A program made the translations under genes and the position numbers. From a virus (Duplodnaviria; Heunggongvirae; Uroviricota; Caudoviricetes), in IMG/VR virus record IMGVR_UViG_3300031555_004037: a stretch of 64,000 nucleotides of DNA; one strand, given 5' to 3'. The notes under the pieces were generated by a model. It was given only the letters and a program-made list of their open reading frames with translations, was not told the DNA's origin and did no database searches. This document shows, piece by piece, positions 12,271 to 56,914 of the stretch; position 1 is the first letter of the stretch; each line of letters starts with the position of its first letter.

Positions 12271-12274
12271 TTCT

Positions 12275-16547: not shown

Positions 16548-16550
16548 TTT

Positions 16551-23500: not shown

Positions 23501-23848
23501 TTATTTTTTATTTCTCGCTAATTCAAGTCCTTTTTCAATATTAAAGATAATAGGAATAAAATATAATAAATCTCCATCATCAATATCTAAATCTGAAAAT
23601 TCTATTTCATTTATATCCCCCTCTGTAATACATAACATTAGTTCTTCAACATTTAGTTTACATAATAATAAAAGTTCATCTTGATTTAATACTGAACACA
23701 ATTCATTTAAAGTAGACATAAAAATATCATCTTCTGCAAAATGAAACTCTAATTCATCTTTAATAATATTTTTTAAATCAACTCCACCCTTAAACATTTG
23801 TAAGGGTTCAACATTAACAGCAATAGTAATTTTTTTACGATAGTGCAT
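23501..23848 (-). CDS. acidic hypothetical protein (paralogue of 23932-24456)
   Basis: Shared N-terminal motif VNVEPLQMFKGGVDLKNIIKDEL; RBS AAGGAG 9 nt upstream on the minus strand. Confidence 0.5.
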   Translation of the reverse strand: MHYRKKITIAVNVEPLQMFKGGVDLKNIIKDELEFHFAEDDIFMSTLNELCSVLNQDELLLLCKLNVEELMLCITEGDINEIEFSDLDIDDGDLLYFIPIIFNIEKGLELARNKK

Positions 23849-23888
23849 AATAATATACTCCTTTCATATTTTATTATAATTAAATAGA

Positions 23889-23923
23889 ATAAAAAATAAG
23901 GGAGATATTTTAATTCTCCCTTA
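23889..23923 (-). terminator. rho-independent terminator for the minus-strand gene
   Basis: TAAGGGAGA...TCTCCCTTA; T-run on the minus strand. Confidence 0.5.
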
Positions 23924-23931
23924 TATATTAT

Positions 23932-24456
23932 TTATTTGTCTTCTTCAGAAAATATACCAATACCATTAACGAAGTCAAAAGCACCTTGATAATCCCATTC
24001 CATTTTATCCTTTGTAAAAAACAACTCTGCCTTGTTAAGATTTAAAGTAATAGGTATCATAACTGACATTGTACCATATATAAAATTGTCTACCTCTTCA
24101 TCAGTTTCTAAATCTTCCAAATCTTTCAATTCATCCACATTCAAGGTTAATTCATCTTCATTGTATCTGTCTAAATGAATATCATTTGGTTTTTCTACTG
24201 AAACATATCTCATACCCGTTTCCTTAACTTCTAAACATTGCATAAATTCGTCAAAAGTTAATTTAAGTGGTATATAATAATCCCTATTGTCTGTAAATTT
24301 TTCTGCAATAGCATTTGTTATTAAACCCCCTTGATTATAAAATTCATCTCGCAATTTTTCGGTAACTAAATCTTTTACCGTAATACCACCTTCAAACATC
24401 TGTGAAAGATTTACAGAAAAATGATACTGAAAGTCTACTAATTTGTCTTTGTTCAT
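23932..24456 (-). CDS. acidic hypothetical protein (paralogue of 23501-23848)
   Basis: VNLSQMFEGGITVKDLVTEKL; Asp/Glu-rich (DELKDLEDLETDEEVD). Confidence 0.5.
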   Translation of the reverse strand: MNKDKLVDFQYHFSVNLSQMFEGGITVKDLVTEKLRDEFYNQGGLITNAIAEKFTDNRDYYIPLKLTFDEFMQCLEVKETGMRYVSVEKPNDIHLDRYNEDELTLNVDELKDLEDLETDEEVDNFIYGTMSVMIPITLNLNKAELFFTKDKMEWDYQGAFDFVNGIGIFSEEDK

Positions 24457-24458
24457 TA

Positions 24459-24788
24459 TTATGAACCCTCCTTTAATTGTTTTTTATTTATATTATCAAT
24501 AAGTGCTTGTTCTTCTTCATAATTATCTTTATTTGTAAATGGTTCAGGTAAATGTGTCATTACATTATCCCAATCCACTTCTGTACCACAATTATGACAG
24601 AATTTTTCATTATTGCCTAAAATTCTAAAACTCTGTGAACAACAAGAACACTTATAAATAATTTCTTTATATGGATGCCACGATGTAATTTCTGTGGCAG
24701 TAGGTTTCATTTTTGATTTCATTTTTATCTCCTTATAAAAACATTTTGATTTAATTATTATATCAATATTATAAGTTTCTGTATACAA
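24459..24788 (-). CDS. zinc-ribbon protein
   Basis: CSCCSQSFRILGNNEKFCHNCG (Cys4). Confidence 0.5.
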   Translation of the reverse strand: MYTETYNIDIIIKSKCFYKEIKMKSKMKPTATEITSWHPYKEIIYKCSCCSQSFRILGNNEKFCHNCGTEVDWDNVMTHLPEPFTNKDNYEEEQALIDNINKKQLKEGS

Positions 24789-24881: not shown

Positions 24882-24946
24882 GTAAGTATACAAAAAATTA
24901 TTTTTTTGTTATAATAAATAAAAATTATAGAAAGGAAAATTAAATA

Positions 24947-26860
24947 ATGGGAAGTAATTTATACACAGAAAATAGTATTGTTACTGAATCTCCAAGAGAA
25001 TTTACGAGAAGAGTTCCATCTACTTATTTAGGTTCTAGCAAAAAGAATACTAACCTTGTTAAGGAAATCTTTGCCAATGCTGCTGATGAACACAGTATTG
25101 GAAACTGTGATTACATCAAAGTATCTGTAGATACAGATAAAAACATTTATATCGTTGAAGATAATGGACAAGGTTTTCTTGTAAATGCAGGTATTGATGA
25201 AGACGGAGAAACAATTTTACAGCGTTCTTTTGATAAATTAAATACATCAGGTAAAACAACTCAAGATGGTGTTTATCAAGGTACTGCTTTAGGACTAAAT
25301 GGTATTGGTGCAAAACTTACTAACTGGTTATCAAAATCTTTAAATGTAGTTACATATAGAGATGGAGAATTTGAAGAATTAAATTTTACAGATGGTATTT
25401 TTGTTAATAGAAAAGTTGGTAAGAAAGATAGACATTCTGGAACAGTAGTTACTTGGCATCCAGATGAACAATTCTTTGCTGAAAATATTCCTGACGATTT
25501 AGCATTAAAATCACATTTTGAAATTATTGCAGCATTATGTCCAAAATTAACTATTGAATACACTTATAATGGAAATAAAACTGTATATAAAGAGCCTAAT
25601 GGAATTACTGCTTATGTAGAAAGAAAAGTAAATGGGAAAGAATTATTTGCAAATCGTTTCATTATGGAAAGAAATATCGGTAAAGATGTTCTTAATATTT
25701 GTTTAACTTATACATCTGATTATTCAGAAAATATTGACGCTTATGTAAATTTAGGACATACAGATGGTGGAGAGCATATTAAGTCATTCCATACAGCATT
25801 TACAAAGGCTGTAAATAAGTATGCTACTGAAACAAATTTACTTAAAAAGAGTGATAAGAATTTTAGTACAGCCGAAATTTCAGAGGGATTATATGTAGTA
25901 TTTAATATGACTACAACAACTGCAAAATATGACGCACAGAATAAATCAAGAATTGATGATATTGACTCAAAGATTATCAATGCAGTAGTTGGTGGAGATT
26001 TTGCTACTTGGTTAATCAATAATCCTACTGACGCTAAAATTATTGTTGAGAGAGCCTTAACTGCAAGAAAAGCAAGAGAGGCTGCACAGAAAGCAAAGGA
26101 AAAGATTAGAGATGCTGGTAAAGTAAATAAGAAAACATTATTTGTAGATTTACCATCAAAATTATCTGACGCATATCCAAAGAATAAGAAAGATAGAAGT
26201 AATTGTGAAATTTATATCACAGAGGGAGATTCTGCTGCGTCTTCTATCAATGCGACAAAGGATAGTACATTCCAAGCCTGTTTCCCTATTCGTGGTAAGG
26301 TATTATGTTGTCAAAAGGCTACACCAGATAAAGTATTTGGAAATCAAGAAATTTCAAATATTGCAAAAGCACTTGGTCTTGAAATTGACAAATCAACTGG
26401 AAAACTTATTTATGATGCAAAGAAATTAAGATATGTAAGAATTATTATTGCAACTGATGCCGATGCTGATGGTGACGATATTTCTTCATTATTATTAACT
26501 GTGTTTAATTGGTTATGTCCAGAACTTATTGAAAATGGACATATTTATAGAGTATATGGTGCATTATTTAAGGCAACTTTTAATGATGGAACATATATAA
26601 CATTCCAAAACGATGTGGAATTTGAAAATTGGAAAAAGACTAATAAGAAAGCATATAAGTTATCTCGTGCTAAAGGTCTTGGAGAATTAACAAAAGAAGA
26701 AACCTATGAACAGTTAATCAATCCCGAAACAAGAGATTTAAGAAGACTTGTTGCGTCCGATATGGATGAATTTAATAAGTATCTTGAAATGTTTAAGGGT
26801 GCTGATATTGAACCTCGTAGAGCATATCTTGAAGAACATCATAATGATTATGAAGAGTAA
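24947..26860 (+). CDS. type IIA DNA topoisomerase, ATPase/TOPRIM subunit (GyrB/ParE/T4 gp39-like)
   Basis: GHKL ATP-binding FANAADEH; TOPRIM EGDSAASS and IIATDADADGDD. Confidence 0.85.
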   Translation: MGSNLYTENSIVTESPREFTRRVPSTYLGSSKKNTNLVKEIFANAADEHSIGNCDYIKVSVDTDKNIYIVEDNGQGFLVNAGIDEDGETILQRSFDKLNTSGKTTQDGVYQGTALGLNGIGAKLTNWLSKSLNVVTYRDGEFEELNFTDGIFVNRKVGKKDRHSGTVVTWHPDEQFFAENIPDDLALKSHFEIIAALCPKLTIEYTYNGNKTVYKEPNGITAYVERKVNGKELFANRFIMERNIGKDVLNICLTYTSDYSENIDAYVNLGHTDGGEHIKSFHTAFTKAVNKYATETNLLKKSDKNFSTAEISEGLYVVFNMTTTTAKYDAQNKSRIDDIDSKIINAVVGGDFATWLINNPTDAKIIVERALTARKAREAAQKAKEKIRDAGKVNKKTLFVDLPSKLSDAYPKNKKDRSNCEIYITEGDSAASSINATKDSTFQACFPIRGKVLCCQKATPDKVFGNQEISNIAKALGLEIDKSTGKLIYDAKKLRYVRIIIATDADADGDDISSLLLTVFNWLCPELIENGHIYRVYGALFKATFNDGTYITFQNDVEFENWKKTNKKAYKLSRAKGLGELTKEETYEQLINPETRDLRRLVASDMDEFNKYLEMFKGADIEPRRAYLEEHHNDYEE

Positions 26861-28936
26861 TTGGAGGAACTTATGTCAAAAAAAGTAGAAATTCCATTTA
26901 ATGTAATTGACCAAGATATTATTGGGGAATTAAAGAAAAATTATATTATCTATGCAAATGAGTTAAATAAACATAGAGCAATTCCTTATATCTTAAATGG
27001 TCTAAAGCCTATTGCAGCACATATTATTTGGGCTATGAAAGCAAATAATAGAACACATAATAAGAATTATACAAAATCTGCAAAGGTTACAGGAGAAATT
27101 ATGAATTATTCTCCACACGGAGATTCATATGACTCTTGTGTGAGATTAGCACAAGACTTTATTTATCATATTCCATATATTGATGGACACGGTTCTTTTG
27201 GTTCTGCCATTGGTGGACCTACTCCTGGTGCTTCAAGATATACGGAAATGAGATTAAGTAAATTTATTGAAGATGTATTATTATATAATACAGATTTATT
27301 AGATATGGGGCTTAATTATCTTGAAGAAGATGAAGAACCTATTATCAATAATTGGGTGGCATTATTACCTTTAATGTTTATTACTAATACAACAGGTATG
27401 GGATATGCTACATCACAAACTTGGTCATCTGGAAATTTATATGAATTTAGAGAACAATTATTAAATTATCTTAATAATGGAGAAGTTGATTGTTCTAATA
27501 TTTATCCAGATTTCCCTACTGGTGGTATTATTGTAAATAAATCCGATATGAAGTCCTTATATGAAAATGGTAAGGGTACAATTAAACTTCGTGGTAAGGC
27601 AGAAGTTGATGGTAATACAATTAGAATTTTATCATTACCATATCAGAAATATCCAGAACAGTTTATTGAAGATATTAAAAAGTATGTTGCAAATAATGCA
27701 AATACCATTAAAGATGTTGCGAATATGTGTGGTATGAATGGCTTTTTAATTGAAATTGAATGTGACGATGGAACTGCTGAATATACATTAGAAACATTGT
27801 ATAAGAAAACTTGTTTACAGATTAGTATTTCTGACGAACATAAAGCAGTTATGCCTAATGGAGAAATTAAATTAGTATCACTTAAAGACTATATTGAATG
27901 TTTTGTAAATGCTAATATTGAGTTGGTTAAGAAAGAAGCACAACTTAATCTTGATAAAATTAGTTCAAGACTTGAAATTGTAGATGGTCTTTTATCAGCA
28001 TTAGACATTATTGATGATATTATTAAAGAAATTAAATCATCTAAATCAATGGACGATGCAAAGAAAACTCTTATGACTAAAACAATTAAAGGTCATAAAT
28101 TTACAGAAAGACAAGCCGATGCTATTGTTCATACACCACTTGGTAGATTAGCAAATCTTGAAAAGGTTAAATTACAAGATGAAAAAGAAGAATTAGAGAA
28201 AAAGAAAGCAGAAAATGAAAACTTATTAGTTGATTATAATGCACAGAAAACATTCTTCTTAAATAGATTTAATTCCCTTATTGATAAGTATGCTTGGGAA
28301 AGAAAAACAGAAGTAATTGATGTTATAATTGATGAAGAAATTGCTGAAAAAATTAAGAAACCTAGACAGTTAAAAGTAAAGAAAGAATATATGATAGTAT
28401 TAACTGCTGAAAATTGCTTAAAACGAGTTGAGGTGTCTAAATTTAGAGCAACTTCGGAAGATGAAAAGACAGTTCGAGTACAAGGAAATGAAAGAATTGT
28501 TTTAGTATCAAATCGTGGTAATATGTATAAGGTATTTTCAAATAAGATTGATGTTTGTATGCCTGCTGCATCTGGAACTGATATTGCAACTATTAGACCT
28601 GAAATCAATGATGAAAAGATTATTGCTATTTATTCATCAGATGTAACAATTCCTTATGTGTATTTTGTTACAAAAGAGGGTATGGGTAAAAAGGTTAAGT
28701 CTAAAGATGTTATTCAGTTATCAAAGGATATTGGAACAACTGTATGTGGTATGAAAACTGATACTGATGAAGTAATTGCAATTAAGTTACTTAATGAAAA
28801 TGAAAATATTGAAATCACAACTACAAAGAGAAAGTTAGTAGTTGAATCAGGTAAGCCACAAGGTAGACCTGCTGTTGGACATAAAGTAATTGAGTTAAAG
28901 AAAGACGAAACTATTACAGAAGTCCATTCAATTTAA
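26861..28936 (+). CDS. type IIA DNA topoisomerase, DNA cleavage subunit (GyrA/ParC/T4 gp52-like)
   Basis: LNGLKPIAAHIIWAM ~ GyrA DGLKPVHRRVLYAM; active-site Tyr motif GASRYTEMRLS ~ AAMRYTEIRLA. Confidence 0.85.
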   Translation: MEELMSKKVEIPFNVIDQDIIGELKKNYIIYANELNKHRAIPYILNGLKPIAAHIIWAMKANNRTHNKNYTKSAKVTGEIMNYSPHGDSYDSCVRLAQDFIYHIPYIDGHGSFGSAIGGPTPGASRYTEMRLSKFIEDVLLYNTDLLDMGLNYLEEDEEPIINNWVALLPLMFITNTTGMGYATSQTWSSGNLYEFREQLLNYLNNGEVDCSNIYPDFPTGGIIVNKSDMKSLYENGKGTIKLRGKAEVDGNTIRILSLPYQKYPEQFIEDIKKYVANNANTIKDVANMCGMNGFLIEIECDDGTAEYTLETLYKKTCLQISISDEHKAVMPNGEIKLVSLKDYIECFVNANIELVKKEAQLNLDKISSRLEIVDGLLSALDIIDDIIKEIKSSKSMDDAKKTLMTKTIKGHKFTERQADAIVHTPLGRLANLEKVKLQDEKEELEKKKAENENLLVDYNAQKTFFLNRFNSLIDKYAWERKTEVIDVIIDEEIAEKIKKPRQLKVKKEYMIVLTAENCLKRVEVSKFRATSEDEKTVRVQGNERIVLVSNRGNMYKVFSNKIDVCMPAASGTDIATIRPEINDEKIIAIYSSDVTIPYVYFVTKEGMGKKVKSKDVIQLSKDIGTTVCGMKTDTDEVIAIKLLNENENIEITTTKRKLVVESGKPQGRPAVGHKVIELKKDETITEVHSI

Positions 28937-29022: not shown

Positions 29023-30378
29023 ATGACAACAAAATACAACAAAAAGTGGTATAAACCAGAAAAGTTAAGTACCAAAATTTTATTAACTGTATTAATTTTA
29101 TTATTTATCAGAGTATGTTCTAATATTCCTATTCCTTTTATCAATAAGGAATATCTTGAAATTATGTTTGCTGATAATTCAGCATTTTCACTTATTAATA
29201 CATTTTCTGGTGGTTCATTTACTCAAATGTCCTTTATGGCATTAAGTGTAACACCTTATATTACTGCATCTATTGTTTTACAATTATTAACTATTGTATT
29301 TCCTAAATTAGCAGAAATTCCAAAGGGTAGTCCAGAAGATAAAAAGAAATGGGAAATTTGGCAATTTGTTGTTGGTATTATTTTAGGAATTACACAATCT
29401 ATTGGTGTAGCATTAACTTTTGGTAGACAAGGTTTAATTACACCTTATAATTTTGGAACAGTTGCTTTAACCGTATTATTATGGTCATTAGGTGCTATAA
29501 TTACTATTGGAGCAGGTACATATATTACTAAATGTTGTTTTGGAAATGGTATCTCACTTATTTTAACAATGAATATTATTTCTTCATTACCTGGAGATAT
29601 TCTTAATTTCTATAATATGTATATTAAGGGAGAGAATATTGGAAATATTATTATTGCTTGTTTAGTAGGTCTTTTAATTGTTTTAGGACTTATTTCAGCA
29701 ACAGTTATTCTTAATGGGGCACAGAAAGAAATCAATGTAATTTATTCTAAAAATGCTTATAAGAATGGTGGAAATAATAAATCTGTATCAACTATTCCAC
29801 TTAAATTGAATATTGCTGGTGTAATGCCTGTAATTTTTACATCAACATTATTCTCATTACCACTTATGTTTTTAACAAATTCTTCAAATAAAGTAGCACA
29901 AGCAATAGTACATATTTGTTCATCTACTTATTGGTTTGACGGAGAACATTGGTGGAGAACTATTGGATTTTTCTTATATGGTGCGTTAGTTATATTCTTT
30001 GCATATTTTTATACTGCTATTGTATTTAATCCATTTGAAATTGCACAGAATTTAAAGAAATCAGGTGCTTGTATTCCTGGTGTTCGACCTGGACAACCTA
30101 CCATTGAATATTTAACAAAGCAAAGTAAGTATTTAACTTTAATTGGTGCTGTTTATTTATTCTTATTAACTCAAATTCCTATGTTTATTATGCAATTTAC
30201 AGACTTGAGTTATTTATCATTTGGTGGTACTTCAATTATTATTATTGTTGGTGTAGTATTAGAAATTGCTACAACTCTTAAATCTGAAAGATTAAAATTT
30301 GCTTATACAAAAGCAACCTCAAGTAATTCATTTTTAGGTTTAAAAACAAATCAAAATGTAAGAAAGGGAGTATTTTAA
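29023..30378 (+). CDS. secY: SecY protein translocase subunit (mobile-element-encoded copy)
   Basis: FSGGSFTQMSFMALSVTPYITASIVLQLLT ~ FSGGAL...ALGIMPYISASIIIQLLT; GITQSIGVALTF ~ AIFQSIGIATGL; LKKSGACIPGVRPGQPTIEYL ~ [21 protein letters not shown]; 10 TM-like segments; not in spc-operon context. Confidence 0.9.
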   Translation: MTTKYNKKWYKPEKLSTKILLTVLILLFIRVCSNIPIPFINKEYLEIMFADNSAFSLINTFSGGSFTQMSFMALSVTPYITASIVLQLLTIVFPKLAEIPKGSPEDKKKWEIWQFVVGIILGITQSIGVALTFGRQGLITPYNFGTVALTVLLWSLGAIITIGAGTYITKCCFGNGISLILTMNIISSLPGDILNFYNMYIKGENIGNIIIACLVGLLIVLGLISATVILNGAQKEINVIYSKNAYKNGGNNKSVSTIPLKLNIAGVMPVIFTSTLFSLPLMFLTNSSNKVAQAIVHICSSTYWFDGEHWWRTIGFFLYGALVIFFAYFYTAIVFNPFEIAQNLKKSGACIPGVRPGQPTIEYLTKQSKYLTLIGAVYLFLLTQIPMFIMQFTDLSYLSFGGTSIIIIVGVVLEIATTLKSERLKFAYTKATSSNSFLGLKTNQNVRKGVF

Positions 30379-30537
30379 ATGAGAAGATTAAGAAATGAAT
30401 TAAAATCAATTAAATGGTTAAAGAGTGATGATGTAATGAAACAAACATTATTAGTGACAAGTGTGACAGTTTTAAGTGGTGCAATTCTATTAGGACTTGA
30501 CACTCTTGTACAATATATTATTGGAATTATCGTATAA
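30379..30537 (+). CDS. secE: SecE translocase subunit (52 aa; not in ORF track)
   Basis: MRRLRNELKSIKWLKSDDVMKQTLLVTSVTVLSGAILLGLDTLVQYIIGIIV ~ Bacillus SecE (K-x-x-W-P ... single TM ... LLD); RBS AAGGGAG; directly downstream of secY. Confidence 0.7.
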   Translation: MRRLRNELKSIKWLKSDDVMKQTLLVTSVTVLSGAILLGLDTLVQYIIGIIV

Positions 30538-30546: not shown

Positions 30547-31227
30547 ATGTTAATAACTGATGTTATGAAAATCTGTAAAATAAAATGGTTATACAAGGAT
30601 AATGAATTTTATTATTGTATGACCGACATAGTTACAGGTAAGGATATAATTATATATTCAAGTAATGACGAATATGATGAAGAAGATGATGAAGAAGATG
30701 AATATGAGGACGAATATGACGAAGATGAAATAGATATAGAAAATGTAGCTTGTTTTCGTGAAAGATTTTATGAAACATATATACAATGTTCAAAAACTTT
30801 AGATAATATAATACAATCTGTAATTCTTATTGGGGAATTTGAAGAAGATGTGGATTGTATTTATCTAAATGTAGCAAATCTTTGTATGTTTGCATTTGTA
30901 GATTGGATTTGTCACGCAGGATATTTAGAGTTAAATCATAGAAATCATACTGCCAAAATGAAAGATACAATTTCAAGAAAAACAATTACAGTAATGAATT
31001 GTTCAGATGAATGTGCTGAATCACTTCAAGATTTTGTAAATTTTATGGCAACAAATGAAAAAGTTGATTATTCTCTTAATGGTAAAAATACAATTTTATT
31101 TATGGGAACTAATTTAATGTATGACTTTGAAAAAATACAGTATGATAATATATCTAACGATTTGACTTTTGGAGATTTAGAACATCTTTATATGGAATTA
31201 TTTGAATATATGTTATATGATAAATAA
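30547..31227 (+). CDS. highly acidic hypothetical protein
   Basis: DEYDEEDDEEDEYEDEYDEDEIDIEN; between secE and the flotillin gene. Confidence 0.45.
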   Translation: MLITDVMKICKIKWLYKDNEFYYCMTDIVTGKDIIIYSSNDEYDEEDDEEDEYEDEYDEDEIDIENVACFRERFYETYIQCSKTLDNIIQSVILIGEFEEDVDCIYLNVANLCMFAFVDWICHAGYLELNHRNHTAKMKDTISRKTITVMNCSDECAESLQDFVNFMATNEKVDYSLNGKNTILFMGTNLMYDFEKIQYDNISNDLTFGDLEHLYMELFEYMLYDK

Positions 31228-31250: not shown

Positions 31251-32780
31251 ATGAATGGACTAATTTCATTTGGAACAACTTTTGTTGTAATTGCTGTTAT
31301 TTTTGCAATTATTATTATTTTCACAAGTTATGTGAAAGCACCACCTGATAAAGCATATATTATTTCAGGTTTAAGAAGGAAACCAAAGATTTTAATTGGT
31401 AGAGCTGGATTAAAAATTCCGTTCTTTGAAAGAAAAGACGAATTGTTAATTAAGCAGATTTCTATTGATATTAAGACAGGCGATTATGTACCTACATTAG
31501 ATTTCATTGGTGTTAATATTGACGCTGTTGCAAAAGTCAAAGTTAGAACTGATGAAGAGGGTATTCAGTTGGCAATGAAGAACTTCCTTAATATGAGAGA
31601 AGACGCTATTATGAGTGCATTAGTTGATTCTTTACAAGGTAATATGAGAGAAATTATTGGTACTATTACTCTTAAAGATTTGTGTAATGATAGAAAGAAA
31701 TTCGGTGACGAAATTCAGAGTAAAGCACAGATTGATATGAATAATCTTGGTATTGAAATTATTTCTTGTAACATTCAGCACGTTGAAGACCAAAATGATT
31801 TAATCATTGCTTTAGGTCAAGATAATATGGCAAAAATTCAGAAAGATGCGTCAATCGCAAAGGCTATGGCTGATAGAGATGTTGCTATTGCACAAGCACA
31901 AGCAGAAAAAGAAGCAAATGACGCAAAAGTTCAATCAGATACAGAAATTGCTATTAAGCAAAATGAGTTGGCTATTAAGAGAGCAGAACTTAAAACTATT
32001 GAAGATGCTAAAAAGGCAGAGGCAGACGCTGCATATAAGATTCAAGAAGAAGAGCAGAGAAAGTCTATTGAGGTATCAACTGCTAATGCAGATATTGCTC
32101 GTCAAGAGAAAGAAATTGAATTAAAGAGAAAAGAGGCTGAAGTTCAAGAACAGGCACTTGACGCACAGATTAAGAAACAAGCAGAGGCAGAAAGATTTGC
32201 TAAACAACAAGCAGCAGACGCAGAATTGTATGAAAGACAGAGAAATGCAGAGGCAGAAAAGTTTGAATTAGAAAAACAAGCAGAGGCAAGAAAAGCACAG
32301 GCTGATGCAGACAGATATGCAAGAGAGCAAGAGGCAGAGGGTATTGCTGCTGTTGGTAAAGCAGAGGCAGAGGCTATTGCAGCTAAAGGTAAAGCAGAAG
32401 CAGAAGCACTTGAAAAGAAAGCCGAAGCAATGAAGAAATATGGACAAGCAGCAATTATTGAAATGATTGTTGATAAGTTACCAGATATTGCAGCATCAGT
32501 TGCTAAACCTTATGGAGATATTGATAACTTTACAGTTATTGACGGTGGAAATGGCGAGGGCAATAGTGTAGGTAATTTAGTACCACAGAATATTGCTAGT
32601 ACAAGAAAAGTAATCAATGATTTACTTGGTGTTGATATTGCTGATTTAGTTAGAGCAGATACATATGACGCTAAAGTAAATAAGAATGTAACAGTTAGTG
32701 GATTAGAGAATTTACAGTCTGTTACCGTAAATAATGAGTGTAATACTACACCAACAACTACAACAGTTGTAGAAGAATAA
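31251..32780 (+). CDS. flotillin-like SPFH/band-7 protein (FloT/YqiK-like)
   Basis: N-terminal TM; SPFH domain (YIISGLRRKPKILIGRAGLKIPFFE...); long Ala/Glu-rich coiled coil (AEAEA repeats) typical of flotillins. Confidence 0.8.
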   Translation: MNGLISFGTTFVVIAVIFAIIIIFTSYVKAPPDKAYIISGLRRKPKILIGRAGLKIPFFERKDELLIKQISIDIKTGDYVPTLDFIGVNIDAVAKVKVRTDEEGIQLAMKNFLNMREDAIMSALVDSLQGNMREIIGTITLKDLCNDRKKFGDEIQSKAQIDMNNLGIEIISCNIQHVEDQNDLIIALGQDNMAKIQKDASIAKAMADRDVAIAQAQAEKEANDAKVQSDTEIAIKQNELAIKRAELKTIEDAKKAEADAAYKIQEEEQRKSIEVSTANADIARQEKEIELKRKEAEVQEQALDAQIKKQAEAERFAKQQAADAELYERQRNAEAEKFELEKQAEARKAQADADRYAREQEAEGIAAVGKAEAEAIAAKGKAEAEALEKKAEAMKKYGQAAIIEMIVDKLPDIAASVAKPYGDIDNFTVIDGGNGEGNSVGNLVPQNIASTRKVINDLLGVDIADLVRADTYDAKVNKNVTVSGLENLQSVTVNNECNTTPTTTTVVEE

Positions 32781-32842: not shown

Positions 32843-34651
32843 ATGTGGAAGAAAATTAGAGAATGGTTTAAAAAGAATAGGGGTTTAATTATTATTAGTT
32901 TTTTAGCCTCTATTATTACAATAACAATTTTACAAAATCGTCAATTATCTCAACAGCCTGAAATTAAAACCATTTCATATCAAGAATTTGAACAACTTGT
33001 AGAAGAAGAAAAAGTAGATAGTATCTATTATAATAAATCAAATGAATGGATGACTATTACTTTATTTAATGTTGAATCAAAAACATTAGATGCAAAAGAG
33101 AGATTAAATTATCAAGGATATACAAATGAAGATAAAAGAAATGTATCATATCCAGCATATGAAGAATTTAGGCACGATATGTTGAGTAATAATATAAATA
33201 TGATAATTGTAGACCCAAAAGTGTCTTTTATTGAAAAAGCATTATCAATCGTTTCTTTAATGTTTCCGTTATTATGGGTTTTTATTATTATGAGAATGTT
33301 AATTAGTTCTACTCAAGGAAATGTTAAAAGAAAAGAAATTATACAAACAAGTAATGTAAAATTTACTGATATTATTGGTCACGAAGAGATATTAGAAGAT
33401 GTTAAATTCATTACTGAACTTATTAAAAACCCTAAACTTGGAGATGATATAGGGGCAAAAGTTCCTAAAGGTATTTTATTAAGTGGAGAACCAGGTACAG
33501 GAAAAACTCTTATTGCAAAAGCAATCGCAGGAGAGGCAGGAGTACCATTCTTATATCAAAATGCGTCAAGTTTTATAGATAGATTTGTCGGTATGGGTGC
33601 AAAAAATGTTCGTGATTTATTTAAACTTGCAAAAGAAAATGCCCCTTGTGTATTATTTATAGATGAAATTGACGCTATTGGTGGAAATAGAAATAATGGT
33701 AAGGGTACATCTGAAAATGACCAAACAATAAATGCGTTATTACAAGAAATGGATGGTTTTACAGGTAGAGAGGGAATTTTTATAATTGCTGCTACTAATA
33801 GACCTGATATTCTTGATAGTGCTTTGGTTAGAGCAGGACGATTTGATAGACAAATTATTGTATCTGCCCCTAGAGATTGGGGAGTTAGAAAAGATTTATT
33901 TGAACATTATCTAAATAAATTTAAAGTTTTAGATGATGTAAATATAGTAAATTTAAGTAAACAAACAGCAGGATTTACTGGTGCTGATATTGCTGCAATT
34001 TGTAATGAGGCTAGTATTATTGCAGTTATGCAAGAAAAAGACGCTATTGATATGGATTGTATTGAAGAGGCTATTGATAAGAAAATCTTTAAAGGAAATC
34101 GTGCTAAAAAAGAGAAATACTTTGAAGATAAAAAGATTGTTGCTTATCACGAATCTGGACACGCTGTTATGAGTTATTTATTAGGAGAACCTATTGCTAG
34201 AGCAAGTATTCAATCTACTGTTTCTGGTGTTGGTGGTGTAGTATTTAATGAAGATAAAGATAGTGTATTTCAAACTAATATTGACTTTGAGAATAGAGTT
34301 TTGATATGCTATGCTGGTAGAGCATCAGAAGAAATTAAATTCAACTCTGTTACAACTGGTGCTTCTAATGATATTACACAAGCAACAAATGTTATGATGA
34401 ACTACATAGAAAAATTTGGTTTTGATAAAGAATTTGGTTTATTAGATATTGGTGTTTTAAGTAAGGAACATTTAATCAATAGTGAAGAAATTACTAATAA
34501 ATTAAGTAATATGTCTAGGAATTTATATGAAAAAAGTTTATCATTATTAAAAGATAACTATAAATTAGTAGAAACTTTGGCTAATAAATTATTAGATGTT
34601 GGAACATTATCTGGTGACGAAATTACAGAATTATTTAATAACTGTAATTAA
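32843..34651 (+). CDS. ftsH: FtsH-family membrane AAA+ zinc metalloprotease
   Basis: Two N-terminal TM helices; Walker A GEPGTGKT; Walker B VLFIDEIDAIG; second region of homology ATNRPDILDSALVRAGRFDRQ; HEXXH HESGHAV. Confidence 0.9.
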   Translation: MWKKIREWFKKNRGLIIISFLASIITITILQNRQLSQQPEIKTISYQEFEQLVEEEKVDSIYYNKSNEWMTITLFNVESKTLDAKERLNYQGYTNEDKRNVSYPAYEEFRHDMLSNNINMIIVDPKVSFIEKALSIVSLMFPLLWVFIIMRMLISSTQGNVKRKEIIQTSNVKFTDIIGHEEILEDVKFITELIKNPKLGDDIGAKVPKGILLSGEPGTGKTLIAKAIAGEAGVPFLYQNASSFIDRFVGMGAKNVRDLFKLAKENAPCVLFIDEIDAIGGNRNNGKGTSENDQTINALLQEMDGFTGREGIFIIAATNRPDILDSALVRAGRFDRQIIVSAPRDWGVRKDLFEHYLNKFKVLDDVNIVNLSKQTAGFTGADIAAICNEASIIAVMQEKDAIDMDCIEEAIDKKIFKGNRAKKEKYFEDKKIVAYHESGHAVMSYLLGEPIARASIQSTVSGVGGVVFNEDKDSVFQTNIDFENRVLICYAGRASEEIKFNSVTTGASNDITQATNVMMNYIEKFGFDKEFGLLDIGVLSKEHLINSEEITNKLSNMSRNLYEKSLSLLKDNYKLVETLANKLLDVGTLSGDEITELFNNCN

Positions 34652-34691
34652 AATAAAATAAAATAAAATAAAATAAAATAAAATAAAATAA
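34648..34691. repeat. (AAAAT)n pentanucleotide microsatellite, about 8-9 units
   Basis: TAAAATAAAATAAAAT... fills the spacer between the ftsH stop and the RBS of the giant surface-protein gene. Confidence 0.9.
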
Positions 34692-34708: not shown

Positions 34709-37700
34709 ATGAAAAGCAAAAGATTAAAAACTCGAATTTTGGCATTATTTTTAACTATGTTGCTTGTTACTAATTCTCCATTAGTTGCTATGGCTGAAAA
34801 TAATCCATCATTTGTAGAAGACGAAATAGTTACTACCGAAGAAACAACTACAGAAGAAGTAACTACGGAAGAGGTAACTACGGAAGAAATTATAACAGAA
34901 GAAGTAACAACAGAGGAAATCACAACGGAGGAAATCACAACAGAAGAAGTTGTAACCGAAGAGATTACGACAGAAGAAACAACTACAGAAGATGTAATAG
35001 AAGAAATACCTATTACATTTAATCTTAATAGAAATACTTTAGTTGAATATTGTGTTCCGTCTGAAGTAATAACTAAAATTGAATCTACTACATTTACACA
35101 TCAAACAACAGAATATAATAAATATGAATTGATTACAGATAATGCAGTAGATAATAACAATAATGTTTGGTATGTTTATTCTGTTAAGAGTGTTTTAGAC
35201 GATGAAGTAATAACTTTAGGTAATGTTATATTCCCTAAATCAGTTAAAATAGAAGATACCTTAATTATTCCTGCGTCTGTAACAGATTCCGAAACTTATT
35301 CAGTATATGGTGTAGGTAATAGTAGTTTTAAAGACGCAAATATAATTAACACATTAGAAATTGAATCTGGAATAAGGACTATTGAAGATTCAGCATTTGA
35401 AAATTGTGGTGTTTCAAACATAACATTATCAGATACAATTATATCTTTTGGTTCGTCAGTATTTGCTAATAATGATAATCTTACATCATTTACTTTTCCG
35501 ACAAATCCAGCATTTGTTGAAACAGGTTATAAAGTTTTATATGATTGTAATAATTTAACATCAATTACATTAGGAGAGAATATTAAAGTTATTTCAGCAG
35601 AATCATTCTATCAATGTAATAAATTGACTAATGTAGTCATTCCAGACGGTTTACAAGCAATATTATATAGAGCATTTGCAAAAACTGCTATAACAGAAAT
35701 CAATTTAAAGAATATAACTGGATTAGGTGCTCAATCATTTGAACATTGTTATAATCTTGAAACTATTGATTGGGGTGCTTGTTTATGGGGTGGAAAGATT
35801 GATTATAGAACTTTCTATATGTGTAATTCATTAAAAGAAATCAATATACCTGATAATGTTGAGGTTGTAGGAACTGACGCTTTTAATGGTTGTACATCTG
35901 TTACAAGCATTGACTTGAATAATGTTATTCAAATTGAATATTGTGGATTTGCTAATACAGGTATTACTGAATTGACAATTCCTGAATCCGTTAAATCAAT
36001 GGGTGCATTTTCATTTGGTAATACCACAAATCTTGAAACTGTAACATTTAAAAATGATATTAGAATTTATATTAGTGATGATTCAGCACCAAGTAAACAA
36101 TTATTTATAGTATTTGGTAAATTAACATATAATGAGCCTAGTGATACTTGGAATAATGACGGTGGTGCTTGGAAAAATGATGTTATTAAAAAAATAATAA
36201 TAGATAATGAAAATATTACAGATTGTACTTTTGTTCCAAATGGAATGTTTCAGTATATGGGAATTGAAGAGGTTATTCTTTCTGATAATATTTCCACATT
36301 AAATTATCAAGCATTTTTTGATTGTAAAAATTTAAAGACTATTAAAGCAAATAAATTAAATGCAATTCAAGATTCAGTATTTCAGAATTGTACTTCATTA
36401 GAAGAAATAAATCCAACTGACGATGTAAAAATTAACTTTCCAGATACACTTTATTGGATAGGTACTAATGCCTTTTTTAAGTGTAGTTCATTAGGAGATG
36501 TTACATTAGATAAAAACATTTTCCATATTGGTAATAGTGCTTTTTATAACTCTGGTATTACTAATCTTGTGATTGGTAATAATGTTACTGAAATCGGTTC
36601 TTCTGCATTTAAAGAATTAGTAAATTGTGAAAGCATATATATAGATGTTGAACCGTCTTTAGTAGAATATAGAGAATACGGAACAATGTTTTGGGGATGT
36701 ACTTCATTAGATACTTTAACTATTGGTAAAAATGTAACTACTCTTGAACCAAATTGTCTACAAAATATGGTCACAAAACATCTTATTTTTGAAGAGGGTA
36801 GCACAATTACTGAAATACCAAATCATTGTGTTTATGGAAATGCTAATCTTGAAAGTGTTGTTTTACCAGAAAATTTAATAACAATTAGTGAAGAGGCATT
36901 TCAAGCCTGTTATTCTTTAAAAAGTATTGAATTACCAAATACAATTACTACAATTAAAAGAAATGGTTTCTTTGGATGTCATTCACTTGAAACAATAACT
37001 GGTTTAGAGAATGTTGAGTATATTGGTAATCACGCTTTCTTTAACAATATAAATCTTAAAGAAGTATATATTGGGGAAAATGTTAATTATTTAGGTGCAG
37101 CATCATTCTTTAATACTTATTCACTTGAAAAAGTTACTATTGATAATAAGTATATGATTGATGAAACTACAGGAGAAACTATTTGTAAAACAAGTGAAAC
37201 TCAAACTGAACCACAAGTACAAAACTATCTTACTAGAGTATTTGGTAGAGATGATAGAAATTTTGACCATAATGGTTTAGCATCACATTTAAACTTTAAT
37301 AAAGAAAATTGTACACCACAACATTCATATTTTGAATTAATAATTACTGATAAAGTAGCACAATTACAAGATTATGAGTGTGAGGGTATGTATGTAAGTA
37401 AAGTTACTATTCAAGATAATGGAAAACTTACTGAAATTCCTTATATGTGTTTTAGTAATTGTGAATATTTAGAAACAGTTAATTTAGGTACAATAAATAA
37501 AATTGATAAATACGCATTTACTTGTTGTACAAGTCTAACTGAAATTGAATTACCAATGTCTGTAACTAATGTTGGAGAATATGCTTTTTCTGGTTGTGAT
37601 TCACTAGAAGAAATATATTTATGGAATCCTGATGTTAAAATAGAAAATTATGAGGGTAGTGAATTAAAACACGCTACTGAAATAGTAAATGGTGGTTCAA

Positions 37701-49352: not shown

Positions 49353-51833
49353 ATGTTAGATTTAATTGCAAAAAACAAAGAAATGTTAGATGCAAAAGCA
49401 TATAATATAGCAGACACTCGTTTAATGATGAGAATTGCAAGTCTTAAAACTATAAATGATTATGATTTGTATTTAATTGCGTGTTGTTTATGTAATTATG
49501 ATATTGAAGAAAAATCAGATGCAAGAGAACTTCGTATGGAATATTTCCTTAAAACTAATAATGGTTCTATTGTTGGATTTGAACACGGAGAATCTGATTA
49601 TGGTATTGTTGGAAAATCTGATATTAAATGTACTAATACAGGTAATGTAAATAAATTTGGTTTATATGAATATGAAATCAATGTAAATAATAAAGACCTA
49701 GTTTCTGATTTATGGGAAAAGAAACCAAAGGATTGTCTTAAATATGTGGATAACAAAACCTATGAAGATAAACTTATTGTTTCTATTAGTAAATCTCAAT
49801 TAGATAATTTTATGGCTATGTTAGATGAATTAGTTATTGATTATGAAATTTCAGATTTACAAAAGGGTTTAATTTATACAAATAAATCAGGTAATGAATT
49901 GATTGATATTTCTACCTTAGATTTACCTTTTGAACCATATCAATATCAAATAGAAGACGCTAAAAGATTAGTAAGTAAAAAAAGAGCATTACTAGGACAC
50001 GATATGGGCTGTGTATCAGGAAATAGTATAGTTCGTATTAAAGAAAGAGGAAAAAAAGCAACACGAGAAATAACCGTTTCTAATTTATTTAATTTGTTTG
50101 AAGAAGATAATACTATTCAAATTAAATGTTTAGTAAATGGAAGATTTGCTTATATGCCTATCAAAGCAGTAATTGATAAGGGTGTTCGTGATACTATTAG
50201 ATTAGTTACAAAAGATACTAGACTTGAATGTACTACTGACCACGAAATTTATACAGAAAAGGGTTGGGTAGAATCAAAAGATTTACAAGTTGGAGATTAT
50301 ATTGTTACAAATGAATTTGGAATTGATATACCTAATCATTTGATTAATTCGATTAAAAACAATATTGATGTTAATAAAACAATTAATGAAAACTGTGATT
50401 ATATATATACATCAAAAGTAGGTATTTCAGAAATTATTAGCATAGAAACTTGTGATACTCAACAAGTTTATGATATTGCTATTGACGATGTAGAAATTCA
50501 TAATTTTGTTTGTAATAATATTGTTGTTCATAATTGTGGAAAGACCTTAATTTCAATTTTAATTGGTCAAAGTTTAGATATGCCTAAATTAGTAATTTGT
50601 CCAGAGTCATTAAGATTAAATTGGTTAAGAGAAATTAAACAAGTTAAAAATGACGCAGATGTACAAATTTTATTAAGTAATGAAACACCTCATTTTGGAG
50701 AAGATTGGACAATAGTTGGTTATCAAACTGCAAGTAAATTTATTGATAATTTAATGAAATTTGAGTGTATCTTTGTAGATGAATGTCACAACTGTAAGGC
50801 TGTAAATAATTGGGGAAAACCGTCAAGTAAGAGAGCCGATGCAGTAATTACATTGGCAAATAATGCAGAGTATTGTTATTTATTATCTGGTACTCCAATG
50901 CCATCACATAATAAAGATTTATTCAATATTCTTAAAATGTTAAAATGTGAAGCATTTGATTTTAATAATAAATGGGCATTTAAGAATTATGCAGATAAAT
51001 ATTGTGACCCTAAAGAAACATATTTTGGTATGGACTATTCTGGTAATAGTAATTCAGATATGTTACACGGATTATTAAATAAACTAATGATACGAAGATT
51101 AAAGAAAGATGTATTACCACATTTAACAAAGCAAAGACAGTTTATTCCTATTGCACCAAAATTCAAAAAGGAATATATGGATATTGAAAAAAGATTATAT
51201 TTTCCTGAACCAGACGATACTTATATGGGATTGGCTATGACAGGAAGAAAATTATCTAGTCAATATAAAGTACAAACTGCTATTGAATTAGCAGAATCTT
51301 TAATTAATTCTGATGAAAGTGTAGTTATTGTTACAAACTTTATTGAAACAGCAGATATATTAAAAAATCATTTTAAAGATAAGGCTTGTGAAATTCGTGG
51401 TGGTATGAGTGATAAAGATAAGCAAAAAGCCATTGATGATTTTCAAAGTAAAAAGAAAACTGTATGTATATTAAATATGATGGCTGGTGGTGTTGGTATT
51501 ACTTTAACAGCAGCACATACAATGATAATGGTTGATTATGCTTGGTTGCCATCAGATATGACACAGGTAGAAGATAGAATTTGTCGTAGTGGTCAGACAG
51601 AGAATTGTATGATTTATTATATTTATTGTGAAAATTCTATTTTAGATAATATATTTATTGAGATGATTTCTGATAAATCAGCAAATATAGACGCAGTTGT
51701 AGATAATGTAGAAAACACATTTAATTTAAGTGAGGAAAAGTTAGCCAATTCAACTTATATTGATTTACTTAAATCAAAGATTAAAGAAACTAAACCAAAG
51801 GCAAAGCGTGGCAGAAAAAAGAAGACTGAATAA
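49353..51833 (+). CDS. SNF2/Rad54-family helicase with a mini-intein inside the Walker A motif
   Basis: Host motif DMG|CGKT split by the intein; DExH box VDECHNCK; motif VI QVEDRICRSGQT; remaining helicase motifs intact. Confidence 0.8.
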   Translation: MLDLIAKNKEMLDAKAYNIADTRLMMRIASLKTINDYDLYLIACCLCNYDIEEKSDARELRMEYFLKTNNGSIVGFEHGESDYGIVGKSDIKCTNTGNVNKFGLYEYEINVNNKDLVSDLWEKKPKDCLKYVDNKTYEDKLIVSISKSQLDNFMAMLDELVIDYEISDLQKGLIYTNKSGNELIDISTLDLPFEPYQYQIEDAKRLVSKKRALLGHDMGCVSGNSIVRIKERGKKATREITVSNLFNLFEEDNTIQIKCLVNGRFAYMPIKAVIDKGVRDTIRLVTKDTRLECTTDHEIYTEKGWVESKDLQVGDYIVTNEFGIDIPNHLINSIKNNIDVNKTINENCDYIYTSKVGISEIISIETCDTQQVYDIAIDDVEIHNFVCNNIVVHNCGKTLISILIGQSLDMPKLVICPESLRLNWLREIKQVKNDADVQILLSNETPHFGEDWTIVGYQTASKFIDNLMKFECIFVDECHNCKAVNNWGKPSSKRADAVITLANNAEYCYLLSGTPMPSHNKDLFNILKMLKCEAFDFNNKWAFKNYADKYCDPKETYFGMDYSGNSNSDMLHGLLNKLMIRRLKKDVLPHLTKQRQFIPIAPKFKKEYMDIEKRLYFPEPDDTYMGLAMTGRKLSSQYKVQTAIELAESLINSDESVVIVTNFIETADILKNHFKDKACEIRGGMSDKDKQKAIDDFQSKKKTVCILNMMAGGVGITLTAAHTMIMVDYAWLPSDMTQVEDRICRSGQTENCMIYYIYCENSILDNIFIEMISDKSANIDAVVDNVENTFNLSEEKLANSTYIDLLKSKIKETKPKAKRGRKKKTE
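50010..50534 (+). mobile_element. mini-intein (175 aa, no endonuclease domain) in the SNF2 helicase P-loop
   Basis: Begins CVSGNSIV, block B TTDHEIYT, ends VYDIAIDDVEIHNFVCNNIVVHN followed by +1 Cys (CGKT); excision would restore DMGCGKT. Confidence 0.75.
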
Positions 51834-54872: not shown

Positions 54873-54896
54873 ATATAAAACAGTTATAAAAATTAT

Positions 54897-54924
54897 TTAC
54901 AAATTTGTTAAATTGTGTTATAAT
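54897..54924 (+). promoter_or_regulatory. sigma-A-like promoter TTACAA -16- TGtTATAAT
   Basis: -35 54897-54902; extended -10 TGTGTTATAAT ending at 54924; upstream of ligase N-terminal gene. Confidence 0.5.
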
Positions 54925-56053: not shown

Positions 56054-56059
56054 AAAGGA

Positions 56060-56395
56060 ATGGAAATTATGAAAATACATCCAACAAAACAGAAAGTAAT
56101 TGATAGTATTATAACTTTTATTAGTCAATATGATGAAATTACAAAGATGGTTATTTTTGGAGATGTATTAGAAGAGAATATTTCCGAAGATACTTTTATA
56201 GATATTGCAATCAAAACAATTACAGAAGAATTAGCATTAGATGATGAATTTGCTTATAATATTGTAAAAGAGATTGATGATATTACAGACGGAAAATTTA
56301 GTTTTATCATAATGAATGAACCTAATATTAGTTCTAATACAATGGAATTAATTGAAAGGGGAATTACTGTTTATGAAAAGGCAAAAGAAATCTGA
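56060..56395 (+). CDS. nucleotidyltransferase-fold (MNT-like) protein inside the ligase split
   Basis: MVIFGDVLEENISEDTFIDIAI resembles the Pol-beta NTase hG[GS]...D-h-D-h motif (degenerate). Confidence 0.35.
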   Translation: MEIMKIHPTKQKVIDSIITFISQYDEITKMVIFGDVLEENISEDTFIDIAIKTITEELALDDEFAYNIVKEIDDITDGKFSFIIMNEPNISSNTMELIERGITVYEKAKEI

Positions 56396-56849: not shown

Positions 56850-56855
56850 AATTAT

Positions 56856-56883
56856 TTACAAATATTAGATAATGTGTTATAAT
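56856..56883 (+). promoter_or_regulatory. sigma-A-like promoter TTACAA -16- TGtTATAAT
   Basis: Identical architecture to the 54897 promoter; drives the ligase C-terminal gene. Confidence 0.5.
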
Positions 56884-56914
56884 AATTATAGTTAAGTGAA
56901 AGTGAGGAAATTAA

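Follow-up and report, generated by a model that had tools for sequence, protein, structure and literature searches.

A giant sorting-signal protein encoded beside SecY, SecE, flotillin and FtsH genes on a jumbo-phage-like element

What is the role of a giant protein that carries an export signal at one end and a signal for cell-wall sorting at the other, when its gene lies on an element that looks like a phage? This question is raised by a 64,000-nucleotide stretch (hereafter the window) of the IMG/VR record IMGVR_UViG_3300031555_004037, classified in the Caudoviricetes, in which a plus-strand gene (34709..39892) starts with ATG and encodes a product of 1,727 amino acids. A first-pass annotation, made from the letters and a list of open reading frames (ORFs), had described this product as a sortase-anchored surface protein; its placement of the ORF was exact, and the observation as a whole was confirmed by the analysis presented here. 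We favor, with moderate confidence, the interpretation that the gene encodes a Sec-exported, sortase-anchored giant protein of the adhesin or aggregation type, carried as recombining cargo by a jumbo-phage-like element of ~320 kb. In the best explanation the carrier is a monoderm, Clostridia-like cell, which the element appears able to re-surface.

Export and sorting signals, domains and alleles of the giant protein

The giant protein, and the small protein encoded after it, comprise the following features.

34709..34795, + strand: signal peptide, residues 1-29 (MKSKRLKTRILALFLTMLLVTNSPLVAMA, cleaved before E), a heuristic call (hydrophobic window 9-29, A27/A29 site)
34832..34992, + strand: 15-nucleotide tandem repeat in 10.7 copies (Tandem Repeats Finder), encoding an acidic (T-T-E-E-V/I)n tract at the mature N-terminus
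Residues 30-180: T/E tract plus cap, no family in the fragment scan
35249..37738, + strand: BspA-type leucine-rich repeat (LRR) region, residues ~181-1010, putative ligand-binding head (Pfam LRR_5)
37739..38518, + strand: orphan domain, residues 1011-1270, no Pfam match; the C-terminal recombinant allele block begins here
38519..38938, + strand: prealbumin/CnaB-like domain, residues 1271-1410, sub-threshold (CarboxypepD_reg 26.6 bits, cut-off 32.3)
38945..39385, + strand: Flg_new (Listeria-Bacteroides/InlB B-repeat), residues 1413-1480, and Big_2, residues 1489-1559 (E = 3e-14 and 2e-17)
39470..39748, + strand: SdrD_B/CarboxypepD_reg stalk domain (CnaB-like fold), residues ~1588-1680, both above cut-offs
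39794..39889, + strand: cell-wall sorting signal, composed of SPETG (1696-1700), D, a hydrophobic helix and KKYKK (TIGR01167 above cut-off)
39986..40435, + strand: 149-residue, fast-diverging protein, anchored by a C-terminal transmembrane tail

The N-terminus of the giant protein reads MKSKRLKTRILALFLTMLLVTNSPLVAMA, followed beyond the predicted cleavage point by ENN, and shows a basic n-region, a hydrophobic core and an A-x-A cleavage site (AMA before E). This heuristic reading bears out the Sec signal peptide proposed in the first-pass annotation, and the basic residues and A27/A29 were invariant in an alignment of four orthologues. A hydropathy scan found just two hydrophobic segments in the entire, strongly acidic protein (251 D+E versus 122 K+R), namely residues 9-29 and 1703-1724. 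The second of these belongs to the C-terminus, which ends in ...KPTSPETGDNSNPFMYLGLMLFAIATLFVLKKYKK. There, the NCBIfam model TIGR01167 (LPXTG_anchor) matched residues 1697-1727 with 19.6 bits against a cut-off of 15.9, and in this way upheld the earlier description of SPETG, helix and KKYKK as the end of a sortase substrate; Pfam Gram_pos_anchor (PF00746) stayed marginally under its threshold (19.6 versus a cut-off of 20). In the four-way orthologue alignment P1697, T1699, G1700, D1701, NPFMYL and LFVLKKYKK were invariant. Both the signal peptide and the tripartite sorting signal are retained in remote paralogues and in orthologues with as little as 44% identity, so these features are more than chance. 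Judged by its sequence, the conclusion that the giant protein has every feature of a Sec-exported sortase substrate is supported.

An operational substrate of Clostridioides difficile SrtB is defined by (S/P)PXTG at 17-45 residues from the C-terminus, a transmembrane segment and at least two basic residues (PMC4155245). The window allele agrees with this definition, as its SPETG lies 32 residues from the C-terminus and is followed by KK..KK, and the residues after the motif (TGD..N..FM) resemble those of CD630 substrates, for instance ...SPKTGDSTNLMAF... (PMC4155245). Across the giant-protein family, S or P at position 1 is not kept and Q, N, K, A or V is found instead: the relatives carry QPKTG (P0002 and P0003), NPLTG (P0004), VPKTG (P0024), KPDTG (P0285) and APATG (P0286). 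The family signal is therefore xPxTGD, and the (S/P)PxTG motif that had been assigned to the protein is true of the window allele only. A residue other than Leu at this position is typical of the substrates of class B-type sortases (NPQTN, NPKTG). We infer that anchoring is probably carried out by a host sortase of the class B, C. difficile SrtB type.

To which families do the regions between these two signals belong? The giant protein was scanned in ten fragments. LRR_5 (PF13306) matched the protein with E = 1.5e-120 (397 bits, 7 stretches) and was found in all five consecutive sub-fragments of residues 181-1010 (E = 5e-20 to 1.6e-29). Relatives of this region in the PDB are 4fs7, 4gt6, PcpA (4cp6) and TpLRR, and the nearest solved relatives are gut-bacterial surface proteins together with PcpA and TpLRR. 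The BspA-type LRR and Big_2 calls of the first-pass annotation were borne out by these profile searches (397 bits for LRR_5; Big_2 at 1489-1559), and the adhesin-like architecture that it had proposed is supported by the layout of LRR_5 and Ig-like domains. Its Cna-B call stood at the level of the prealbumin/CnaB-like fold, on the evidence of SdrD_B (35.9 bits, cut-off 29.7) and CarboxypepD_reg (33.2 bits, cut-off 32.3) at residues ~1584-1680, and failed at the level of the family, as Pfam Cna_B (PF05738) was not among the matches of the giant protein. On residues 1271-1410 SpaA and SdrD_B matched weakly. A search with the C-terminal 328 residues returned isolated Big_2 and Flg_new domain matches and no named host protein. 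For the orphan domain, a set of 1.84 billion representative proteins contains just three relatives. Sorting signals of the xPxTGD type (QPKTG, APATG) are carried by two of them, and the third, P0285, has KPDTGD but a mixed-charge instead of a basic tail. The AlphaFold model of this domain was unusable (predicted local distance difference test, pLDDT, 41).

The acidic repeat reported earlier as about eleven 15-nucleotide units was recovered with a period of 15 and 10.7 copies. The tract begins right after the signal-peptidase site and would thereby form the wall-distal tip of the mature protein, so the stalk role once given to it does not suit the window allele, in which the tract is not wall-proximal. 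In the fragment P0285, a similar T/E tract is located directly before the sorting signal. Its proposed variability in length was only partly upheld: the tract is identical in P0002 (the 90% allele), with the same copy number, and copy number differs in more distant alleles only, where the tract is rearranged (P0003, 82%) or degenerate (P0004 and P0024).

Next to these features of a single allele, the comparison of alleles indicates how the gene evolves. An identical protein (P0001) is present on contigs of up to 323,839 bp, and orthologues with 90%, 82% and 44% identity were found on contigs of 317,515, 62,040 and 42,594 bp. By the Nei-Gojobori method, the ratio of nonsynonymous to synonymous divergence (dN/dS) over the whole gene was 0.37 relative to the 90% allele and 0.28 relative to the 82% allele, and it lay between 0.1 and 0.5 in each region. 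A dN/dS of ~0.3 implies a functional giant gene that is maintained by purifying selection. In the two closest related loci (L002 and L006) the genes on either side match those of the window at 96-100% identity, and the giant protein does so at 90% and 82%, respectively. Up to about residue 1000 the L002 allele is 97% identical to that of the window (dS 0.035); beyond this point the identity drops to 76-86%, and from residue 1001 on the divergence of L002 from the window equals that of L006. The L002 allele is thus a mosaic of a window-like N-terminal part and an L006-like C-terminal part. Positive selection was considered as the cause of the fast divergence and was rejected, because dS climbs along with dN and the alleles are mosaic, both of which point to recombination. 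The giant gene is an accessory, recombining cargo gene with mosaic alleles. No repeats of the diversity-generating-retroelement or cassette type were found around it. The neighboring 149-residue gene is the fastest diverging gene of the locus, with 70% identity to its L002 and L006 counterparts (neighbors 96-100%), and it is co-inherited with the C-terminal allele of the giant gene.

The SecY-SecE-flotillin-FtsH cluster and its relatives

The first-pass annotation overlooked the genes that adjoin the giant gene on its 5' side. These genes, and the noncoding elements on either side of the giant gene, are the following.

24947-28936, + strand: topoisomerase II/gyrase B- and A-like genes (profile match)
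29023..30378, + strand: SecY translocon channel (Pfam SecY 258.7 bits; TIGR00967)
30379..30537, + strand: SecE, 52 residues, single transmembrane segment (Pfam SecE recorded on orthologues)
30547..31227, + strand: acidic 226-residue protein at a conserved position between SecE and flotillin
31251..32780, + strand: flotillin membrane scaffold (SPFH/Band_7 plus Flot; FloT 294.6 bits, under the 700 cut-off)
32843..34651, + strand: FtsH-family AAA+/M41 membrane protease, directly 5' of the giant gene (Pfam AAA, Peptidase_M41, FtsH_ext)
34649..34691, + strand: (TAAAA)8.6 tract in the spacer between FtsH and the giant gene, just 5' of the ribosome binding site GAAAGGGAAGG
39897..39929, + strand: strong hairpin directly 3' of the giant stop codon (-17.7 kcal/mol, z = -7.1)

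The giant gene would be the last member of a co-directional cluster, in the order SecY, SecE, 226-residue protein, flotillin, FtsH and giant protein. The spacers from SecY to flotillin measure 0, 9 and 23 nucleotides, and that between FtsH and the giant gene measures 57 nucleotides, is made up of (TAAAA)8.6 and a Shine-Dalgarno sequence, and is unstructured (0 kcal/mol). As judged by folding, strong hairpins occur at three sites only, namely 3' of gyrA (-17.1 kcal/mol), in the gap that separates flotillin from FtsH (-18.8 kcal/mol, z = -6.8) and right after the giant stop codon; past the last of these, a promoter-like TAAACA-17-TGATATAAT site (39930-39958) is positioned for the next gene. From this spacing and these hairpins, the giant gene is probably co-transcribed with FtsH. 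The perfect (TAAAA)8.6 tract may be prone to slippage and may in this way affect expression; the related loci L002, L006 and L007 hold ~2 copies of TAAAA and L005 holds none.

The SecY of the element is of the canonical type (TIGR00967, 294 bits versus a cut-off of 253.6), and it stayed below the thresholds of the SecY2 models (132.9 versus 353 and 124.4 versus 249.6); neither SecA2 nor Asp was found within the window. SecY and SecE directly follow the gyrA-like gene, outside any ribosomal operon. FtsH scored 477 bits on TIGR01241, under the cut-off of 600. For the 226-residue protein there was no family or PDB match and the structural model was unusable (pLDDT 35); its positional counterparts in relatives have 206-228 residues. 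The window also encodes four lipobox lipoproteins (LLCGC or LVGC; 9562-10422, 10438-11451, 44520-45458 and 62918-63667), one of which (44520-45458) is a DNA/RNA non-specific endonuclease that is hence predicted to be exported. The giant protein is therefore not the sole Sec client of the element.

Comparison with relatives separates a core from an accessory part of this cluster. The order gyrB-gyrA-SecY-SecE-x-flotillin-FtsH-giant-small transmembrane protein-UvrD is kept in L002 and L006, and in L005, whose giant protein is 44% identical, the same order holds through FtsH and the giant gene, with UvrD directly after the latter. The SecY proteins of these elements form a discrete clade (48-98% identity), often on contigs of 275-504 kb, beyond which identity falls to ~42% with the cellular SecY of Anaerostipes and Ruminococcus. 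Two large members of the clade lack the giant gene: L019 (364 kb; SecY 64% identical) has the order SecY-SecE-228aa-FtsH-UvrD, also without flotillin, and L017 (313 kb) has FtsH upstream of gyrB. Flotillin is confined to the sub-clade with the giant gene. SecYE and FtsH are thus core to the clade, and the junction of FtsH and UvrD holds flotillin and the giant gene as accessory cargo. In the distant relative L003 (320 kb; 7515-16843), a signal peptidase S26 gene and FtsH are followed by a gene for a different, 2,280-residue Big_2/Flg_new protein with VPKTG, which has its own hairpin and sigma-A-like promoter. A wall-anchored giant has therefore been placed beside FtsH at least twice. The view that the FtsH-giant junction is a hot spot for insertion or recombination is supported by L002, in which an IS605-type TnpA (Y1) and TnpB (8303-9816) are inserted exactly between the two genes.

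Broader scans added little to this set of relatives. An FtsH-alignment scan of the JGI metagenomes was set aside as too general, with 79 of its 80 loci at 32-45% identity, the level of cellular FtsH; one locus that it returned (L022) is apparently a chromosomal site next to recA. The FtsH scan of IMG/VR gave one unrelated contig of 145 kb (41.6% G+C). When species-representative genomes were scanned with the orthologue alignment, remote LRR proteins only were found, in a goat-rumen Clostridia metagenome-assembled genome (MAG) and a Prevotellaceae MAG, and these offered no pointer to the host.

How might the products of this cluster act together? During or after its translation, the giant protein would leave the cytoplasm by way of a Sec channel, plausibly the SecYE of the element, and its signal peptide would be removed after AMA. 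The C-terminal helix and the KKYKK tail would then retain it in the membrane until a sortase of the carrier cell cuts between T1699 and G1700 of xPxTG(D) and links it to peptidoglycan. In the predicted arrangement a wall-proximal stalk of CnaB-like, Flg_new, Big_2 and SdrD_B domains holds out the orphan domain, the ~830-residue LRR_5 solenoid and the acidic, T/E-rich distal tip. The element would in this manner supply a translocon, a scaffold and a quality-control protease beside the exported client. In Bacillus subtilis, flotillins co-localize with FtsH and Sec components, and FtsH removes jammed SecY. By analogy, the cluster reads as a self-contained microdomain for export and quality control.

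Nature of the element and competing explanations

What kind of element carries this cluster? An identical protein lies on a contig of 323,839 bp, which places the element above 200 kb; relatives are found on contigs of 317,515, 319,860, 312,862 and 364,174 bp. The G+C content of the window is 27% and nearly all of its genes are on one strand. Matches to PHROG families comprise a UvsX-type recombinase, DnaB, primase and T4-type topoisomerase II subunits (E down to 1e-108), and thymidine kinase, a PD-(D/E)XK nuclease and T4 Gp30.7 repeats were found as well. Adjacent, highly divergent fragments of the RNA polymerase beta (Rpb2_6) and beta' (Rpb1_2) subunits are located at 13097-16547; in tblastn searches their sole matches in phage databases were the beta subunits of phiKZ-like jumbo phages. 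A replication and transcription set of the jumbo-phage type is therefore present, with split multisubunit RNA polymerase, UvsX, DnaB/primase and topoisomerase II. The split NAD ligase, the intein in the SNF2 helicase, the GIY-YIG and T5orf172 genes, Apyc1 in a relative and the precedent of FtsH in cultured jumbo phages likewise speak for a jumbo phage. The label "phage-like" given earlier thus holds for the replication and transcription genes, but no virion gene was seen in the 64 kb or the flanks to go with them. The 10 kb upstream and 2.4 kb downstream of the window hold hypothetical genes and GGDEF, T5orf172, GIY-YIG and HD genes. Since no virion gene was seen and the clade had no match in IMG/VR, the viral identity of the element is unproven; we regard a jumbo phage as fairly probable.

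Several observations weigh against our interpretation, some concerning the element and others the protein. Capsid, terminase, portal and tail genes were all missing from the 64 kb and its flanks. Scans of IMG/VR with the giant protein and with the SecY-clade alignment returned nothing, megablast searches of PLSDB and GenBank phages with 30-45 kb of the sequence were negative, and neither the giant protein nor SecY had a close homologue among phages. No sortase was found as a TLxTC-motif ORF in the 64-kb window or in ~300 kb of related loci, so that anchoring would depend on an enzyme that was not seen. SecYE and FtsH also occur in members of the clade without the giant gene, which means that the translocon is not dedicated to the giant protein. 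On the NCBIfam model of the HupY/LrrG adhesin (NF047961) the giant protein scored 101.9 bits versus a cut-off of 1250, and scans for sigma-70 and terminator consensus sequences performed no better than on shuffled sequence. Finally, the choice between adhesin and exclusion factor is one that we infer. We place adhesion or aggregation ahead of surface masking or exclusion, and a role in the virion last.

The most serious competitor, which we nevertheless consider unlikely, is that the element is a non-viral megaplasmid or other extrachromosomal element similar to the Hodors, and that the giant protein is an aggregation or surface-exclusion substance which promotes or controls transfer from cell to cell. 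Hodors are conjugative megaplasmids of more than 300 kb that were first filed among huge phages, and they carry SecY, SecG and SecE, sortases and giant proteins that bear both a signal peptide and a sorting signal (PMC12934698). The lack of visible virion genes, the absence of the clade from the IMG/VR scans and the binning of one relative in a 'Bacilli bacterium' MAG all agree with such an origin. Against it, Rep_3, ParA/B/M, VirB4, VirD4, relaxase, sortase, SecG and trigger factor were all missing from the 64 kb and ~25 kb of flanks, the G+C content of 27% is far from the 44.6-47.1% of the Hodors, and the split RNA polymerase, UvsX, T4-type topoisomerase II, Gp30.7, intein and homing endonucleases are jumbo-phage traits. 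A highly reduced cellular genome of a symbiont, with the giant protein as an ordinary chromosomal adhesin, would account for the genes of a housekeeping type (gyrase-like topoisomerase II, SecY, SecE, FtsH, RecA-like, DnaB, DnaG, ligase and thymidine kinase) and for contigs of 275-504 kb, one of them labelled 'Bacilli bacterium'. We judge this to be most improbable, because SecY is not part of a canonical rplO-secY-adk-map operon, neither tRNAs nor Rfam families were found in the 64 kb, the RNA polymerase is split and highly divergent, most ORFs of the window have no family match, and an intein and homing endonucleases (GIY-YIG, T5orf172) are present.

Other explanations accept the element as it is and concern the protein. 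If it formed a layer for superinfection exclusion or surface masking that hides the receptors of competing phages or of the element itself, instead of binding an external ligand, its very large size and strongly acidic character would be understandable, and an accessory gene with recombining alleles is what is expected of a conflict locus. Known exclusion proteins include lipoproteins, and the element encodes several proteins of this class as well. We hold this to be rather improbable, as LRR_5 solenoids are typically binding modules and the closest solved relatives are surface or adhesin-type proteins (PcpA, TpLRR among them), and the dN/dS of ~0.3 over the LRR region shows a conserved binding surface and not a mere spacer. 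That the giant protein is a virion component, such as a tail fiber or decoration protein, is very improbable indeed, in line with the dismissal of a tail fiber in the first-pass annotation. What could be cited for it are PHROG matches (families 'structural protein with Ig domain' and 'major tail protein'), which are confined to residues 1303-1576, the Big_2/Ig-like segment. A cleavable signal peptide together with a sortase sorting signal sends the protein out of the cytoplasm, in which virions assemble, and the gene lies in a region of replication and membrane-protein genes, outside any structural module.

A wider reading, which we put forward as possible though doubtful, would combine the adhesin interpretation with the distribution of the cluster: gut and rumen jumbo phages (275-504 kb) of Clostridia-like hosts would share a core of SecYE and FtsH, to which one lineage has added flotillin and a giant sortase-anchored LRR adhesin that re-surfaces the infected cell. 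If this were true, a virus would build its own microdomain for secretion and quality control and change the cell surface with it, for instance so that infected cells adhere to a substrate or to hosts not yet infected, which would favor transmission; among viruses, such a system would be the equivalent of the Hodor surface module and of plasmid aggregation substances.

Comparison with known systems and further features of the window

The closest precedent is that of the Hodor megaplasmids (PMC12934698, bioRxiv 2026). Like the element described here, these mobile elements of gut Bacillota exceed 300 kb and bring their own SecY and SecE beside giant proteins with sorting signals; they have Rep_3, Par, a type IV secretion system, two to three sortases, SecG and trigger factor, none of which was seen here in the 64 kb and ~25 kb of flanks, and they differ in their G+C content of 45-47%. 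The Hodor giant proteins have 7,300 and 2,600 residues with S-layer/MBG domains, whereas the protein found here is a 1,727-residue LRR_5 protein, and the Hodor order hyp-SecY-SecG-SecE is accompanied by trigger factor and sortase B, in the place of which flotillin and FtsH are found in the part of the module visible here. The combination parallels the Hodor module without belonging to it. According to the same preprint, sortases had not previously been reported in phages (PMC12934698).

Precedents for the protein itself come from several bacteria. The C. difficile SrtB substrates, such as CD630_33920 and CD2831 (PMC4155245), are adhesin-like, contain Ig/CnaB-type domains and end in a similar order of motif, D, helix and basic tail; beyond the shared domains there is no homology to the giant protein, whose relatives differ at position 1 of the motif. 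In Listeria, InlA and InlB are alike in their N-terminal LRR head, Ig-like/B-repeat (Flg_new) spacers and C-terminal sortase anchor, but they carry the internalin LRR with an adjacent IR domain in place of LRR_5 and are architectural analogues, not members of the family. The same extracellular binding module (PF13306) is present in Streptococcus agalactiae LrrG/HupY, Streptococcus pneumoniae PcpA, Treponema pallidum TpLRR and BspA of Bacteroides and Tannerella, and LrrG is also LPXTG-anchored. Compared with these LRR_5 surface proteins, the giant protein is far larger, has a different stalk, includes an orphan domain and is encoded by a mobile element.

For a sortase-anchored protein as phage cargo, SasX/SesI on the phiSPbeta-like prophage of Staphylococcus aureus and Staphylococcus epidermidis (PMC7047976) is a precedent, but SasX is small and its temperate prophage of ~127 kb brings no secretion machinery. 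The accessory Sec system (SecA2/SecY2/Asp, with serine-rich-repeat LPXTG adhesins) likewise places a second SecY beside a huge wall-anchored adhesin; here, in contrast, SecY is canonical, no SecA2, Asp or glycosyltransferase genes were seen, and SecYE is also present in relatives without the adhesin. The cultured Pseudomonas jumbo phages MIJ3 and PA5oct (PMC6892783) too encode a full-length FtsH homologue, with only ~34% identity; they infect a Gram-negative host, and neither SecYE nor flotillin nor a sorting-signal protein accompanies their FtsH. SecY matches among PLSDB and GenBank phages did not exceed 36% identity and were discarded, several being evidently chromosomal or contamination (whole-genome Salmonella and Neisseria records), and an Agathobacter 'plasmid' with a SecY match carries the ribosomal spc operon. 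In the searchable literature no description of SecY on a phage was found, and broad overviews of jumbo phages made no mention of FtsH, sortase or flotillin; the one on comparative genomics did not mention signal peptidase or LRR proteins either.

Sortase-anchored LRR adhesins as such are commonplace in Bacillota, and prophages are known to carry small LPXTG proteins as cargo. What is new is the combination of a jumbo-phage-like backbone with canonical SecYE, flotillin, FtsH and a recombining giant sorting-signal protein, which is undescribed for phages in the searchable literature. If the element is viral, phages can import core protein-export machinery and decorate the host wall, and the locus would offer a tractable system in which to ask why they do so; if it is a plasmid, the idea of a Hodor-type 'surface module' extends to a second, unrelated and AT-rich lineage. 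Either way, recombining alleles together with the xPxTGD signal indicate that a surface interaction is under selection in gut and rumen communities.

Some further features of the window and its relatives were noted. A 439-residue ORF (19746-21065) contains five to six tandem repeats of ~190-200 nucleotides that match T4 Gp30.7 and DUF2442. The sole block of minus-strand ORFs, comprising three small genes (23501-24788), lies where the GC skew collapses locally to 0.03, and it faces the divergent intergenic region that precedes gyrB. At 49353-51833 an SNF2-family helicase holds an intein (Pfam Intein_splicing on the identical product), and in the relative L019 the intein is located in gyrB instead. 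Relative L017 encodes the anti-Pycsar protein Apyc1. The NAD-dependent DNA ligase (54959-57706) is divided between an ORF at 54959-56053 and another at 56915-57706, which enclose two small ORFs; Rfam identified no group I intron, and each half is preceded by the same promoter-like motif. This motif, TTTACA-N14-TG(T/A)TATA(A/C)T, recurs between genes at 40443-40471, 54896-54924 and 56855-56883, with similar sites at 13023-13064 and ~24900-24925. It resembles a sigma-A promoter with an extended -10 element, which suggests that the host RNA polymerase reads part of the element.

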